Part shown: one piece after another, positions 2 to 15,987 of the stretch
How the letters are laid out: every line of letters begins with the position of its first letter
Position numbering within the stretch: position 1 is the stretch's first letter
Assembly (NCBI GenBank): GCA_018992685.1
Contig: JACVGT010000008.1
Coordinates: 1 to 64,000, forward strand
Length of the DNA stretch: 64,000 bases
Direction: 5' to 3'
Source of the DNA: Theionarchaea archaeon
Lineage (GTDB): Archaea > Methanobacteriota_B > Thermococci > Methanofastidiosales > SZ-28-30
Position numbers and translations under genes: made by a program
The notes under the pieces: model-generated
Database searches by the model: none
What the model was told of the DNA's origin: nothing
The model's input: only the letters and a program-made list of their open reading frames with translations

Positions 2-583
2 TGGGTCGCCACCTGCTATTTGACGTCCTACTTGAACCTGTTTGAGGATGGTCTGGTGATAGACTGTGGGACCAATTCCACAGATATTGTCCCTGTATTG
101 AACTCTCGACCCATGACTCTCGATGACAATGATCAAGGCTACACTCGAACCAGAACTGGTGAACTACTGTGGTCAGGATTGTATTTCACGCACGTTCCAT
201 CTATCTCTCATGCCATTCTCTTGGGTGATAATGAATATCAGACCAATCCCTCCACCCGTGCCATGAGCTTCGACATATATGTTGTCCTGGACATGGTCAA
301 ATCAGAAGATGTCTTGGCAGAGTTTAATACGAAAGCAGAATACAGACGTCTGATTTCACCTGAAGCCTCTGGAAGAAGGATCATGGACAGTGTGTCGGCA
401 GACAGCGAATTACTGGGTGCTGATGATGCTCGGAAAATTGCCTGCTATCTGGCAGAAAAACAGAGAGAGAAGACGCTGAAAGCCATCAAGAATGTTCTGG
501 CTGCCACAAAGAAAAAATATAAAACTGATCTGAAAACAGTCGCCCTTGCAGGTGCTGTGAAACATCTCTGGGGTGTGCGTTGA
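2..583 (+). CDS. Hydantoinase/oxoprolinase (ASKHA) family protein, MfnF / H4MPT-linked C1 pathway-like; 5' partial, possibly 3' truncated
   Basis: Frame is open from the window edge (WVATCYL...). Motifs LVIDCGTNSTDIVP and R...GELLWSG resemble the DxGSTTTDIIP / RL..GELVY.G motifs of this family. Confidence 0.6.
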   Translation, partial: WVATCYLTSYLNLFEDGLVIDCGTNSTDIVPVLNSRPMTLDDNDQGYTRTRTGELLWSGLYFTHVPSISHAILLGDNEYQTNPSTRAMSFDIYVVLDMVKSEDVLAEFNTKAEYRRLISPEASGRRIMDSVSADSELLGADDARKIACYLAEKQREKTLKAIKNVLAATKKKYKTDLKTVALAGAVKHLWGVR

Positions 584-11030: not shown

Positions 11031-12287
11031 ATGAAAGCAGTAAGACTCTTTATTGCAGGGATGCTCTTGGTTTCGTTCTTTACAGTTATTTCTGAGCCAT
11101 CGCAGGCAGCTTCTGCCTCGTTGAACATTAACAAAGGATGTGGAGCCACCTACTACCCCGGAGAAGTGGTGACCATCAGCTATAAGGTGACAGCAAATGC
11201 CTCAGCAACGGTAGTGGCTTCACTCAGAGTGCAACTGCCTGATTCATCGTGGTCAACATTTTTCATCAACAGAAGCATTCTGCCCAATGTCACGTACTAT
11301 GCATCTGGAGTAGCTGGTTCGAATCTGGGAGGGAGAACAGTAGTCTTCGAGTGGGAAGCCACCTACATGGGGACTGATGCTGGGTCAACATCATGTACGT
11401 ATGTAGTCTCTTCAGGTGGAGGAACTTTCGGAACCACTTTACAGATCAATAGCAATGTTTCGGGATTCCAGGTGTGGTGGGATGGCGTGTACAGCCATAC
11501 AACACCCTATAACTACGCTCTTCTGTATAATGTGCCCTCGGGAACCCATGTGGTGACCTTGAAGAAGTCAGGATGCACCGATGCAAGCAAGACAGTTTCC
11601 ATTGTTCCAGCAACCGCAAACCAGGTGACCATCAACATGAGCTGCGGCTCGAGCGGTGGTACAGAAGAAGAAGCTGACATTGATGGTGATGGTGTTCCAG
11701 ACGATGAAGACGGGTGCTACAATCCTGACTGCAATGTAGTAGATAGAAATGGCTGCCCCAAGGATTCAGACAGAGACGGTGTAAATGAATGTGATGATGA
11801 CTGCCCCACAGAGGCGGGAAGTCCTTCCAACGAGGGATGTCCCGCAGGTGACAAAGACAGCGACGGTGTGACTGATGATGAAGATGCCTGCTACAATCCT
11901 GAATGCTCAATAGTTGATTCCCAGGGATGTCCAAAGGATTCCGATGGTGATGGACTGAATGATTGTGCAGATGACTGTCCCGATGAAGAAGGGGACCGGA
12001 GGAATAGAGGATGTCCTGCTGAAGATTCTGACAGCGATGGTATAACTGATGACCAGGACAACTGCTACAACCCAGGATGCACGCTGGTGGATCCCCGAGG
12101 ATGCCCACGAGACTCTGACAATGATGGAATGAATGACTGTGAGGACTATTGCCCCAACCAAGCAGGTTCCCGGAGCAACAATGGGTGCCCAGAGCAACAG
12201 CAAGCTCCCCAGTTCTGTTTGGGATCGGGACTGCTGGCACTGCTGGTCTGTCTTGGAAGTGTGGGAAAAGTCTTGAAACGGAAATAG
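11031..12287 (+). CDS. Cell-surface protein with PEGA-like domain, thrombospondin type-3 (Ca-binding) repeats and C-terminal anchor
   Basis: Signal peptide; VPSGTHVVTLKKSGC; DxDxDG..D..D.C repeats; C-terminal FCLG-hydrophobic-KRK. Confidence 0.85.
   Translation: MKAVRLFIAGMLLVSFFTVISEPSQAASASLNINKGCGATYYPGEVVTISYKVTANASATVVASLRVQLPDSSWSTFFINRSILPNVTYYASGVAGSNLGGRTVVFEWEATYMGTDAGSTSCTYVVSSGGGTFGTTLQINSNVSGFQVWWDGVYSHTTPYNYALLYNVPSGTHVVTLKKSGCTDASKTVSIVPATANQVTINMSCGSSGGTEEEADIDGDGVPDDEDGCYNPDCNVVDRNGCPKDSDRDGVNECDDDCPTEAGSPSNEGCPAGDKDSDGVTDDEDACYNPECSIVDSQGCPKDSDGDGLNDCADDCPDEEGDRRNRGCPAEDSDSDGITDDQDNCYNPGCTLVDPRGCPRDSDNDGMNDCEDYCPNQAGSRSNNGCPEQQQAPQFCLGSGLLALLVCLGSVGKVLKRK
11676..12190 (+). 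repeat. Three tandem roughly 58-codon TSP3 super-repeats within the CDS
   Basis: Unit D.D.DG..DD.D.CYNP.C..VD..GCP.DSD.DG.N.C.D.CP...G...N.GCP occurs three times; tgctacaa recurs in the DNA at about 174-nt spacing. Confidence 0.85.
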
Positions 12288-13286: not shown

Positions 13287-13422
13287 CGGACCTGGGGGGA
13301 TTCGAACCCCCGACCTACAGCTTTCTTCGCCTCTGCTAACTCTCTTTAGATCATTGAATCATCGAGCGGATATTCATCATCGGCATAGGAGGCTGTTGCC
13401 CTATCCTCTAGGCTACAGGTCC
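13287..13422 (-). tRNA. tRNA-Arg(CCT) with a 63-nt intron at canonical position 37/38 (intron 13323-13385)
   Basis: Acceptor stem GGACCTG/CAGGTCC+G; anticodon stem ACAGC/GCTGT with CT-CCT-A; T arm GGGGG-TTCGAAT-CCCCC; BHB-like junction; TATA (TTATATA) about 25 nt upstream. Confidence 0.95.
13329..13384 (-). ncRNA. Putative box C/D guide sRNA encoded in the tRNA-Arg intron
   Basis: GCC/GGC terminal stem; box C ATGATGA, 11-nt guide, D' ATGA, TTCA, C' ATGATCT, 12-nt guide, D CAGA. Confidence 0.7.
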
Positions 13423-13577
13423 TATTCTATACTTCTGGACAGAATATATAACTCTTTCGAATCCTCTCTCTTCAGAGAGGCTGGCCTTTCCTCCCCTGTA
13501 TCCTTCATCATAGACTACATCAGGTGGCAATCCTCTAAGAGGAACAGATTCAGACATCGGAGTCCTTCCACCGGATC

Positions 13578-14063
13578 CTAGGGAAATATATACTCCAGGA
13601 GCCTTTTTCCCAGTTCCACAACCTCCCAGAAATGGTCAGTTCCTACGAGGTACCCTGCAGAGAACAAGAGAGCAACCAAACATCCCACAGGAAAGGAACC
13701 AATGCTGTCATTGGACACTCCCCAACCCCCAATGCCTATCTGATTCCCCCTGTGAGGCACTGGCCACAGAACGTACACGGGAGAACTGCTGAACATGTCC
13801 ATCGCAATATGGAGACACATCCCCATGAGCCAGTACATTAGAAAAGGAACCCAGTAAGACAGCACTCCCACCGCTCCAGCTACAAATACATTATGGAGAA
13901 GTCTCCGGTGAACTCCCTGGGAGCTCACAGGAATATCCACAATATCCAGGTCACAGAACAGTCCGCCGAATACAATGAGGGACGCTGTCAGAGGAGGACA
14001 GCCTGCCAGCATTGCTGCTGTAGCCAGTATCAATCCACCTACCAAGTGGGCCTTTTGGTTCAT
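13578..14063 (-). CDS. Membrane-bound metal-dependent hydrolase (YdjM-like)
   Basis: N-terminal H, DLD, HRRLLHN and HIAMD motifs; hydrophobic. Confidence 0.8.
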   Translation of the reverse strand: MNQKAHLVGGLILATAAMLAGCPPLTASLIVFGGLFCDLDIVDIPVSSQGVHRRLLHNVFVAGAVGVLSYWVPFLMYWLMGMCLHIAMDMFSSSPVYVLWPVPHRGNQIGIGGWGVSNDSIGSFPVGCLVALLFSAGYLVGTDHFWEVVELGKRLLEYIFP

Positions 14064-14250: not shown

Positions 14251-15987
14251 ATGAAGATTGTTCCTGATACCAGTATTGTCATTGACGGACGGTTGAAACG
14301 GTTTCTTGAACGCACCACGGTGGACGAAATCGTCCTCCCTGAGCTCGTCATTGCAGAAATAGAACATAATGCCAACAAAGGAACACGGATAGGCATCTCT
14401 GGGCTAGAGGAACTGGCTGAAGTCAGACAGTACTGTCTCATTAACCAGATAACGTTAACGTACTATGGGGGAAGGACGCAGGATTATCGAGATATGGATG
14501 AAAAAATCAGAAAAGTTGCAGAAGAAACAGATTCCATCCTGGTCACAGGGGATTTCGTCCAGGGAAAGATTGCAGAAGCCAAAGGGATTCCCTGCTTCAT
14601 TCTGGAGAAAGACGTGGAAACTGAAATGAAAATTGAAGATTTCTTTGATCCCCAGACACTTTCTGTTCACCTAAAAGAAGATCTACCCGTCCTCCTGAAG
14701 ACAGGAAAACCAGGGGATATCGACCTGGTGAGAACCCAGCGAACACTGAACAAAGAAGAACTGGAGGCAATTGCACTGGACATTGTTGAAAGGGCCCGCC
14801 AATCTCAGGATTCTTTCATCGAACTGGATGAAAAAGGAGCGACTGTGGTCCAGCTACGAGAGTACCGTATTGCCATCACCCAGCCACCATTCTCTGACCG
14901 CATGGAGATCACTGCAGTGAAACCATTGAAAAAATTGGGTCTACCAGAGTATTCCGTTTCAGACAGGCTGCTGAAGAGGCTGGAAAAAGCAGAGGGAATC
15001 CTGGTATCCGGATCTCCTGGTGCTGGGAAATCTACCTTTGTGCAGAGTCTGGCTGAATTCTACAAAGACAAGGGTAAAATCGTCAAGACCATGGAGAGAC
15101 CCAGAGATCTTCAAGTTTCTGAAGAGATCACTCAGTACACTGCTTTGAAGGGGTCTATGGCCAAGACAGCAGACATTTTGCTGTTGACCAGGCCGGATTT
15201 CACCGTTTTTGATGAAATGCGCAGGACGGAGGACTTCCAGGTATTTGCTGACATGCGACTGGCTGGAGTGGGCATGGTGGGGGTGGTGCATGCGACAAAT
15301 GCTATTGACGCAGTGCAGCGGTTTATTGGACGGATTGAACTGGGGATGATCCCACAGGTCATCGACACCATTATCCACATAGAGAATGGAGATATTGGCA
15401 CAGTGCTAAACCTGACATTCTCAGTGAAAGTACCCGTCGGCATGAGTGAACCTGACCTGGCCCGTCCTGTTATTGAGGCCAAGGACTTTGAATCAGGGGT
15501 GTGTGAATTCGAGATCTATTCATATGGAGAACAGATCGTGGTTATGCCCGTGAAAAAGCACAAACCCTCTCCCCCAAAGAAGATACTCAAGAATATAGAC
15601 AAGTTCGTGGGAGTGGACTACCGGCTGGAACAGGTGGCACCCAACAGGGGTGTCCTGTACGTTCCAAAAGATGCCATGGCTGAGATTATCGGGAAAAAGG
15701 GAAGGACCATCTCTCAGATCGAAAAAGAAGTGAACATGAAACTGGACGTGAAGCCCATGGAAGAGCAAATCCCGGCAACTCTTGATTTTACACGAAGGGG
15801 GGGACGTCTTTCTGTGAGCAGACGATACAGGAATATCCCTCTGACCTTTTACTGCCAGGGAGAGCCTCTCTTTTCTGCTACCGTGGGGAAAAAAGGAGTG
15901 ATAAAGATCGATATGCAAAACAAGCTTGCACAGACGCTCCATGACATCTGGAGCAGGGGCGACACTGTTTATGCTAAGGAGGAATAG
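14251..15987 (+). CDS. PINc/VapC family ATPase with KH domain (PINA-type)
   Basis: PIN IVPDTSIVIDG; Walker A GSPGAGKST; FDEMR; KH IIGKKG. Confidence 0.92.
   Translation: MKIVPDTSIVIDGRLKRFLERTTVDEIVLPELVIAEIEHNANKGTRIGISGLEELAEVRQYCLINQITLTYYGGRTQDYRDMDEKIRKVAEETDSILVTGDFVQGKIAEAKGIPCFILEKDVETEMKIEDFFDPQTLSVHLKEDLPVLLKTGKPGDIDLVRTQRTLNKEELEAIALDIVERARQSQDSFIELDEKGATVVQLREYRIAITQPPFSDRMEITAVKPLKKLGLPEYSVSDRLLKRLEKAEGILVSGSPGAGKSTFVQSLAEFYKDKGKIVKTMERPRDLQVSEEITQYTALKGSMAKTADILLLTRPDFTVFDEMRRTEDFQVFADMRLAGVGMVGVVHATNAIDAVQRFIGRIELGMIPQVIDTIIHIENGDIGTVLNLTFSVKVPVGMSEPDLARPVIEAKDFESGVCEFEIYSYGEQIVVMPVKKHKPSPPKKILKNIDKFVGVDYRLEQVAPNRGVLYVPKDAMAEIIGKKGRTISQIEKEVNMKLDVKPMEEQIPATLDFTRRGGRLSVSRRYRNIPLTFYCQGEPLFSATVGKKGVIKIDMQNKLAQTLHDIWSRGDTVYAKEE

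Follow-up and report, generated by a model that had tools for sequence, protein, structure and literature searches.

The window analysed here, the first 64,000 nucleotides of contig JACVGT010000008.1 from a Theionarchaea archaeon (GenBank assembly GCA_018992685.1, forward strand), contains on its minus strand a gene for tRNA-Arg(CCU) whose anticodon loop is interrupted by an intron of 63 nucleotides (nt). The gene spans 13287..13422 (136 nt, 73 nt when mature) and the intron 13323..13385, where a bulge-helix-bulge splice motif and the boxes of an archaeal box C/D small RNA (sRNA) are superimposed. An initial annotation proposed that this intron encodes a complete C/D guide RNA acting in trans, possibly on helix 69 of 23S ribosomal RNA (rRNA); its transcription of the intron, minus strand 13385..13323, matches the window exactly. 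Comparative analysis now makes it likely that the intron is a working guide of the sR34 kind, which would rely on the tRNA promoter for its expression and on tRNA splicing for its maturation.

The genome to which the window belongs (G000; 3.03 Mb in 45 contigs, 46.7% G+C, 91% complete) was compared with two genomes of the same genus (G001 and G002) and one of a sister genus (G003). Searches of the window's assembly with RF02540 and RF01959 returned no rRNA genes, and the rRNA target was therefore taken from G001.

The tRNA-Arg(CCU) gene and its splice motif

The tRNA model RF00005 covers 13422..13287 with 56.5 bits (gathering score 29), aligning all 71 model positions around a 65-nt insertion in the anticodon loop. 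The 5' exon (13386..13422) comprises tRNA positions 1-37 and ends in C34, C35, U36 and A37, while the 3' exon (13287..13322) supplies A38, the anticodon-stem strand GCUGU, the T arm, the acceptor strand and the discriminator G. A TATA-like box, UUAUAUAU, lies at 13444..13451, ~26 nt upstream of tRNA position 1, and the block AAAGAGTTATATATTCTGTCC recurs unchanged in G001 and almost unchanged in G002. ARAGORN in intron mode reports no other Arg-CCU gene in the assembly. In relatives the two exon halves are found adjacent and intronless at 84-95% identity, and the tRNA-Arg(CCU) of G003 can likewise be read straight through.

The outer part of the splice motif consists of the anticodon stem ACAGC/GCUGU and a central helix with the pairs C32-G, U33-A, C34.A and C35-G; the inner part consists of the 3-nt bulges U36-A37-U and A-A-A38 and the inner helix GCC/GGC. 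The intron's last six bases (13323..13328) provide the GAAG that faces C32-C35 in the central helix, followed by the AA that together with A38 makes up the 3' bulge and contains the 3' splice site. We assigned the splice sites from bulge-helix-bulge geometry, with a cut after the second base of each bulge, which places the intron at 13385..13323 in the canonical 37/38 position and leaves the anticodon CCU. The motif thus has two 3-nt bulges and a 4-base-pair (bp) helix with a single C.A mismatch between flanking helices; in the sister copies of G003, L153 and L158, GGAG in the central helix gives four Watson-Crick pairs.

Standard tRNA prediction gives a different picture. In default mode ARAGORN finds no tRNA anywhere in the 64-kb window, and in intron mode it types the locus as tRNA-Trp(cca) i(36,63), with the intron two bases leftward, as it does for the copies in G001 and G002. 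Taken at face value, the locus would be a second tRNA-Trp(CCA) with an intron off its usual position, a reading that we regard as very improbable and have rejected. The cuts it implies, after C35, lie outside the 3-nt bulges; the exons have intronless tRNA-Arg(CCU) genes as their orthologues; a normal tRNA-Trp is present on contig C16 (28291-28429); and tRNA-Arg(CCU) would otherwise be absent. ARAGORN itself types the homologues L065, L080 and L082 as Arg(cct). The locus is thus an annotation trap in the window, G001 and G002, where the gene is either missed or typed as tRNA-Trp, and under such typing the genome would seem to lack tRNA-Arg(CCU). The tRNA-Trp(CCA) on C16 (minus strand, outside the window) has its own 62-nt intron, which contains CUGA, CUGAUGA and UGAA. 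As we read it, this intron follows the classical pattern, with two antisense stretches, one for the anticodon loop (fifth pair at C34) and one for the 3' anticodon-stem strand (position 39); the 3' ends of the tRNA-Trp and tRNA-Arg introns are alike (GAAGAA-A).

The two halves of the intron RNA and their targets

Read from its 5' end, the intron carries the terminal-stem strand GCC (13382..13384), which is also the inner helix h' of the splice motif, then box C as the exact consensus AUGAUGA (13374..13380), an 11-nt D' spacer, AUAUCCGCUCG (13363..13373), a variant box D', AUGA (13359..13362), and a variant box C', AUGAUCU (13348..13354), which keeps the GA dinucleotide and is the same in G001 and G002. 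The 12-nt D guide, AAAGAGAGUUAG (13336..13347), follows, and then a variant box D, CAGA (13332..13335), and the 3' stem strand GGC (13329..13331), whose pairing with GCC is backed by covariation. The description of this RNA as complete does not hold for the D'/C' half, where both boxes are degenerate and the spacer has 11 nt.

The variant box D retains the GA needed for the sheared pairs, and the 28 distinct intron homologues that we pooled (see below) show CUGA in 18 cases, CAGA in nine and CCGA in one; the fifth letter of their box C is likewise variable (A 11, U 9, C 7, G 1). Rfam C/D models match exactly the intron interval below threshold: sR20 with 19.9 bits (E 0.06), sR34 with 18.3 bits and sR11 with 16.7 bits.

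The intron is kept within the genus, at 99% (G001) and 92% (G002) identity over the 136 nt of the gene. Between the window and G002, two positions differ in the exons, box C differs at its fifth letter and the D guide solely at its most distal base, and no change is seen in box D, in the stem or in the 3' tail; across the D' spacer, D' box and loop, 13 of 19 positions differ. Metagenome contigs from four DNA runs, aligned to the stretch, gave variants but no joints. In two contigs that differ little from the stretch there are four changes; the D' spacer accounts for three, and the remaining one affects the fifth letter of box C (13376). A separate 2.5-kb metagenome contig (run X12, record 12) spans the entire tRNA but lacks 22 bases of the intron region, which suggests a relative with an intron of ~41 nt.

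The D guide forms 10 contiguous Watson-Crick pairs with UAACUCUCUU of the G001 23S rRNA, which covers the final three bases of the helix 69 loop and the 3' strand of that helix (U1917-U1926 in Escherichia coli numbering; the target region reads GGGAGUAACUAUAACUCUCUUAAGG, and a longer segment GGGAGUAACUAUAACUCUCUUAAGGUAGCGUAAUACC). A run of this length was reached by 6 of 1000 guide shuffles. By the N+5 rule, the fifth base before box D pairs with the nucleotide that corresponds to C1920 in a gapless alignment to the annotated E. coli 23S sequence, so that the D guide has a complement longer than 9 nt with its fifth pair at C1920. The helix 69 segment is identical in all seven genomes of the order in which it was read, and the guide core AAGAGAGUUA is invariant in the 28 homologues. 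Against any tRNA, the D guide reaches 8/12 at best, and the D' spacer matches the host tRNA at no more than 8 of 11 positions, non-contiguously, in the D arm. The assignment to helix 69 and the C1920 equivalent, and the remark that neither guide matches the host, are both borne out. In bacteria, TlyA methylates 23S C1920 as well as 16S C1409, and helix 69 forms the intersubunit bridge B2a.

A free-standing counterpart of the D half is found in Rfam family sR34 (RF01273), whose consensus starts with GCCGAUGA and ends in ...AAGAGGGUUAG-CCGA-GG, and to which the window RNA is alike. Five Thermococcus/Pyrococcus-like genomes from the same class contain sR34 at 58-86 bits; the guide is AAGAGGGUUAG-CCGA in four of them, the fifth not having been parsed. 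Their 23S rRNA reads UAACCCUCUU at the target (longer segment GGGGGUAACUAUAACCCUCUU). Where the window's guide has A, sR34 has G, and where the target in helix 69 has U in the former, it has C in the latter; one difference in the guide thus fits one difference in the target, which is guide/target covariation. Both RNAs address the same 23S nucleotide, sR34 through AAGAGGGUUAG on UAACCCUCUU and the window RNA through AAGAGAGUUAG on UAACUCUCUU. They also share the ends GCC-GAUGA ... GA-GGC and a non-consensus second letter of box D, and since sR34 itself has CCGA, a second letter other than U appears to be normal for guides of this kind. They differ in that sR34 is free-standing, with its own TATA box in the four parsed genomes and no tRNA within 1.5 kb in all five (ARAGORN), and in its D' guide. 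The intron copies remain below the sR34 gathering score of 40 bits (window 18.3, G002 24.5, G003 21.2). Free-standing Thermococcus sRNAs are described in PMC9014305 as being circularised by the ligase Rnl and not by RtcB.

The D' half has a different history. In G002 the D' guide is AUAUUGCGCUAA, followed by a canonical CUGA; in the metagenome relatives L146, L153, L158 and L165, which share the tRNA body, it is AUAUUACGCUAA, followed by CUGA in L146 and L165 and by UUGA in L153 and L158; and in G003 it is GUGUUACGCUAUUA. The D' guides of all six are complementary to GGUAGCGUAAUAC, which lies directly 3' of the D target, and in the copies that carry CUGA the fifth pair falls on C1934, 14 nt downstream of C1920. 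By this comparison, the ancestral RNA therefore guided at two sites close to each other. In the window and G001, AUAUCCGCUCG with AUGA has diverged from the AUAUUACGCUAA of close relatives and is a derived form with a one-base deletion.

No rRNA partner is apparent for this derived spacer: against the 16S and 23S rRNA of the same genus its longest run is 6 nt, which 993 of 1000 shuffles reach, and the suggestion that it targets helix 44 of 16S rRNA can be discarded. Complementary 12-mers elsewhere in the genome (e.g. at C19:8390) occur in about the number expected by chance, as far as can be estimated. A second suggestion, a tRNA D loop, led to the best partner found, the D arm of tRNA-Arg(UCU), with 10 of 11 positions paired, nine of them contiguous, and the fifth pair at C16; 24-27 of 1000 shuffles do as well. 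Arg(CCG) offers nine pairs and one G.U. These matches raise the question of whether the intron, like that of tRNA-Trp, directs 2'-O-methylation of the pre-tRNA that contains it, or else of sister Arg tRNAs, a case that gains something from a population variant at 13364 that turns the tRNA-Arg(UCU) mismatch into G.U. We nevertheless find it unlikely. The host tRNA itself is matched poorly, as noted above; a second variant at 13371/13372 weakens the match; and in G001 a change in the D' guide is uncompensated in an identical tRNA-Arg(UCU), leaving seven contiguous pairs. Moreover, part of the resemblance is inherited, given the likeness of the ancestral rRNA target UAGCGUAAUA to UAGCGGAUAU, and the explanation could apply to the D' half alone. 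The proposed tRNA D-loop target is thus a weak match, and it seems that the D' half has decayed or, less likely, been redirected in the window's lineage.

Another view is that the whole intron is a relic, a former C/D guide that is now inactive and retained because the single-copy tRNA-Arg(CCU) still needs splicing. The variant box D, the degenerate D' and C' boxes, the lost D' target and Rfam scores below gathering could all be read in this way, as could two further facts, that a strict-consensus scan found one other C/D sRNA in the genome and that kin manage without the guide. That other match lies on contig C21 at ~29639 on the minus strand (AUGAUGA..CUGA..UGAUGA..CUGA), and canonical C/D sRNAs seem to be few in the window's lineage. 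We hold a relic to be unlikely. Box D, the box C core and the stem are the same in the three genomes of the genus, and the D guide differs at its distal base only, while the D' half has been rewritten; CAGA occurs in nine of 28 homologues, at a box D position that varies even in bona fide sR34; and a decaying intron would not have preserved a complementarity of 10 bp to rRNA.

The closeness of the two sites in relatives, 14 nt from C1920 to C1934, bears on yet another possibility, namely that the particle acts as a chaperone of rRNA folding, pairing with the 3' strand of helix 69 with methylation incidental or absent. Paired guides whose sites lie <100 nt apart have been interpreted as folding aids (PMC6009581), and sequence by itself fits both activities. 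Methylation, however, needs what is seen here, a 12-nt spacing of box D and guide that is strictly kept and a fifth position that never varies, whereas pairing alone does not, and we consider a pure chaperone role improbable, somewhat more so than a relic. A working methylation guide for helix 69 is thus the reading that we favor.

Occurrence across archaea and linkage with tRNA-Arg(CCU)

We scanned one genome per prokaryote species for the pattern box C + gap + AAGAGAGUUAN-CNGA, which matched at least 80 stretches; among the matches listed, 31 bear archaeal titles and 49 are bacterial or unspecified. None of the latter 49 has a tRNA context. The 31 archaeal loci, among the matches listed and with some tRNA identities assigned by eye, include 16 tRNA-Arg(CCU)-like genes that harbour the sRNA within their CCUCCUA anticodon loop; G001 and G002 account for two of these. 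Two others carry the sRNA 11-13 nt after an intact tRNA-Arg(CCU) (L057 and L124), and four carry it 15-20 nt before one (L110, L123, L126 and, by eye, L070). Remnants composed of an anticodon arm, the sRNA and a 3' half follow an intact tRNA-Arg(CCU) in two cases; flanks that resemble the splice motif and nothing more are found in another two, G003 and one at a contig end; and five loci are free-standing or have no resolved context.

Several of these neighborhoods have peculiarities of their own. In the two remnants, L061 and L108, the intact tRNA-Arg(CCU) is followed within ~25 nt by a remnant in which the sRNA stands between an anticodon-arm strand with mutations and the 3' half of a tRNA, which may represent a decaying tandem duplicate or an intermediate towards a split gene. 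The tRNA-Arg(CCU) genes beside the sRNA in L057, L070, L123 and L126 contain additional introns, located in the D loop or close to 30/31; ARAGORN assigns L123 and L126 to other isotypes because of the further intron near 30/31. The Rfam model recovers a complete tRNA around the sRNA in four of the 14 in-intron loci from outside the genus, and it also misses L070; the remaining in-intron loci are apparently interrupted at other places too.

When metagenomes were scanned with the anticodon loop as a requirement, 20 stretches were obtained, which represent 12 distinct sequences; the guide is AGAGAGUUA in every one. Pooling both sources gives at least 28 distinct tRNA-Arg(CCU) introns of 62-69 nt that contain the guide, from records titled Woesearchaeota and Nanoarchaeota as well as from the window's own lineage. 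This recurrence across lineages marks the element as a class and not an oddity. In an alignment of the 28 pooled distinct sequences, CCUCCUA and the cores of both guide and boxes never change. Over the eight pairs of the anticodon and terminal stems, 98.6% of cells pair and seven of the eight pairs change on both sides, with a covariation score reached by 0 of 500 shuffles and slid controls that pair at 22-65%. The three pairs of the terminal stem all covary (GC/CG/UA, CG/UA and CG/UA), and the two box-adjacent pairs are intact in all 28. Alignment of the relatives' introns, which the initial annotation had put forward as a check, thus supports the guide through invariant guide and box cores and covarying stems.

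The distribution is patchy. In the window's order, the strict pattern is present in three of 34 genomes, all of the window's genus (g1), and among five genomes from the order's other families a shorter pattern gave one match, which lacks box C. In the class of the Woesearchaeota-titled G041, 8 of 401 sampled genomes contain the strict pattern, with 0 in controls; these genomes are small and incomplete. Copies of the DPANN type (such as L058, L091 and L133; alignment A2, columns ~30-60) have GGAGUAGU or CUGAGUAAU in place of clear D' and C' boxes, followed by a short covarying hairpin and a UGAAGA that overlaps the guide; GGAGUAGU has no convincing complement in the one 23S rRNA available.

The sister genus offers a copy that has lost its tRNA. 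In G003, tRNA-Arg(CCU) lacks an intron and is arranged in tandem with tRNA-Arg(UCU); a second locus holds a free copy of the sRNA (contig C40, ~11302-11380, equal to L031, ~502-578, minus strand). The flanks of this copy, ACAGC-CUCCAGA ... GGAG-AAA-GCUGG, preserve the anticodon stem and the splice motif, but there is neither a D arm nor an acceptor stem and only a faint resemblance to a T arm; a TTAAAA box lies upstream and runs of T downstream. No synteny was detected between this copy and the window's tRNA, the comparison giving a single weak paralogous match in a different arrangement. The simplest reading of these sequences is that an intron-bearing tRNA gene was duplicated and that its exons decayed save for what the splicing endonuclease requires. 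Since a perfect splice motif is retained without a tRNA, selection appears to keep the motif for the sake of the sRNA, which argues for endonuclease cleavage as the maturation route of this sRNA.

The positions inside, upstream and downstream of tRNA-Arg(CCU), together with the exon-less copy, lead us to a broader proposal, on which we are evenly divided: that the guide and tRNA-Arg(CCU) are an old mobile pair, matured by the endonuclease and RtcB, by RNase P or by RNase Z. If this is true, the pair would be an archaeal counterpart of intronic small nucleolar RNAs (snoRNAs) and a route both for the movement of C/D genes and for the gain of tRNA introns, and the mini-gene of G003 would be the first C/D sRNA with a precursor of its own built for circularisation by the endonuclease and RtcB.

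Proposed pathway and relation to known guide systems

Four of the proteins that such a pathway calls for are encoded in G000. Nop5 (195 bits) and fibrillarin (273 bits) have neighbouring genes on contig C19, the splicing endonuclease (PF01974, 108.6 bits) is a reading frame of ~200 amino acids with one catalytic domain, and the RtcB ligase matches PF01139 with 542.1 bits. In the model that we propose, the pre-tRNA would be transcribed from the upstream TATA box and the splice motif would fold; the stem of the kink-turn coincides with the inner helix of this motif, so binding of L7Ae should stabilise it. The endonuclease would cut after A37 and before A38, and RtcB would join the exons and probably circularise the 63-nt intron, by analogy with the tRNA-Trp introns treated in PMC9014305. 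L7Ae, Nop5 and fibrillarin would assemble on the intron by way of the GCC/GGC stem, which would also be the stem of the C/D kink-turn. The D guide would then pair with the 3' strand of helix 69, and fibrillarin would 2'-O-methylate the C1920 equivalent. C1934 would be methylated as well, through the D' guide, in close relatives and would have been so in the ancestor, that half having presumably decayed or been redirected in the window's lineage.

Several observations weigh against this interpretation. The central helix of the window's splice motif contains the C.A mismatch, and the fold that displays the motif lies 12.6 kcal/mol above the minimum-energy fold, in which the interior of the intron pairs differently. 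The endonuclease, with ~200 amino acids and one domain, is presumably of the homotetramer type, which prefers strict motifs. Box D is CAGA in place of CUGA, D' (AUGA) and C' (AUGAUCU) are off consensus, the D' spacer is only 11 nt long, and the sR34 model falls short of its gathering score by the margin given above (18.3 versus 40 bits). The 10 bp formed by a purine-rich guide are modest evidence, and the total count of Watson-Crick pairs, 10 of 12, is equalled by 60 of 1000 shuffles. The 23S target was read from a genome of the same genus and not from the window's own. A look for RNA sequencing runs that cover the stretch turned up none. In the five genomes from other families of the order, helix 69 is the same where it was read and the guide is absent, so the modification would be dispensable in these kin. 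Transcription, cleavage, circularisation, protein binding and methylation are all deduced from sequence.

The surroundings of the gene offer two further features. At 13470-13515 (minus strand), just downstream of a YdjM-like reading frame (13578-14063), AUGAUGA and CUGA occur together with a perfect inverted repeat, CCTCTCT-GA-AGAGAGG. We considered this stretch as an sRNA (a weak match to sR1, 10.5 bits) and rejected it, as it has only 29 nt between its boxes and lacks conservation in G001; a terminator hairpin is the likelier reading. Beside the tRNA gene, at 14251-15987 (plus strand), lies a frame of 578 amino acids that unites PIN and KH domains with the P-loop domain of a secretion-type ATPase, which has no evident connection to the intron guide.

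The closest known system is the intron of tRNA-Trp, exemplified by Pyrococcus sR50 and by Haloferax volcanii, and the sections of PMC4090602 and PMC7994747 that deal with it describe the same arrangement as in the window, a splice-motif intron of ~60-65 nt at 37/38 that nests a C/D RNA. In both, the inner helix of the splice motif doubles as the terminal stem of the sRNA, and for tRNA-Trp the excised intron is circularised by the RtcB route, according to the relevant part of PMC9014305. The window differs in its host, tRNA-Arg(CCU), in the lack of any guide match at host positions 34 and 39, and in a conserved guide that aims at 23S rRNA.

In the 2014 review PMC4090602, tRNA-Trp is 'a unique example' where C/D RNAs nested in introns are concerned, and PMC7994747, in its passage on the subject, cites it alone, a view that the initial annotation shared. 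It needs correction, as a 66-nt intron that interrupts elongator tRNA-Met in Nanoarchaeum equitans is described in excerpts from PMC3491384 as giving a stable C/D-box RNA, likewise in a host other than tRNA-Trp. That case concerns a different tRNA, and the passages of PMC3491384 on it name neither a target nor conservation in several species. Dicistronic tRNA-sRNA genes (tRNA-Val-sRNA8 of N. equitans, plant tRNA-snoRNA) and intronic snoRNAs resemble the window RNA in using a host promoter and in being released by processing of the host RNA, but there the release depends on RNase P/Z or on the spliceosome and exonucleases, and here it would depend on the splicing endonuclease. Bacterial TlyA, a protein-only 2'-O-methyltransferase, has the same chemistry and acts on the nucleotide predicted here; it is a stand-alone enzyme, whereas here an RNA guide would pick the site. 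Our literature search found no report of a C/D guide in a tRNA-Arg intron or of a tRNA-intron guide directed at rRNA, with the supplements (the target tables of PMC6009581 and PMC3491384) lying outside it. The chemistry, the ribonucleoprotein and the idea of an intron-nested guide are thus known already; what is new is that the host is tRNA-Arg(CCU) and the target rRNA, that guide and tRNA are linked time and again, in three positions, and that a copy without exons exists.

The guide in tRNA-Trp serves its own tRNA; the one in the tRNA-Arg(CCU) intron would serve the ribosome, at the functionally central helix 69. Such a role gives a reason for retaining one tRNA intron at a fixed length of 62-69 nt and links tRNA processing to ribosome modification in a way that can be tested. 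These archaea would thereby provide a natural system for studying how C/D genes move and how their products are circularised.

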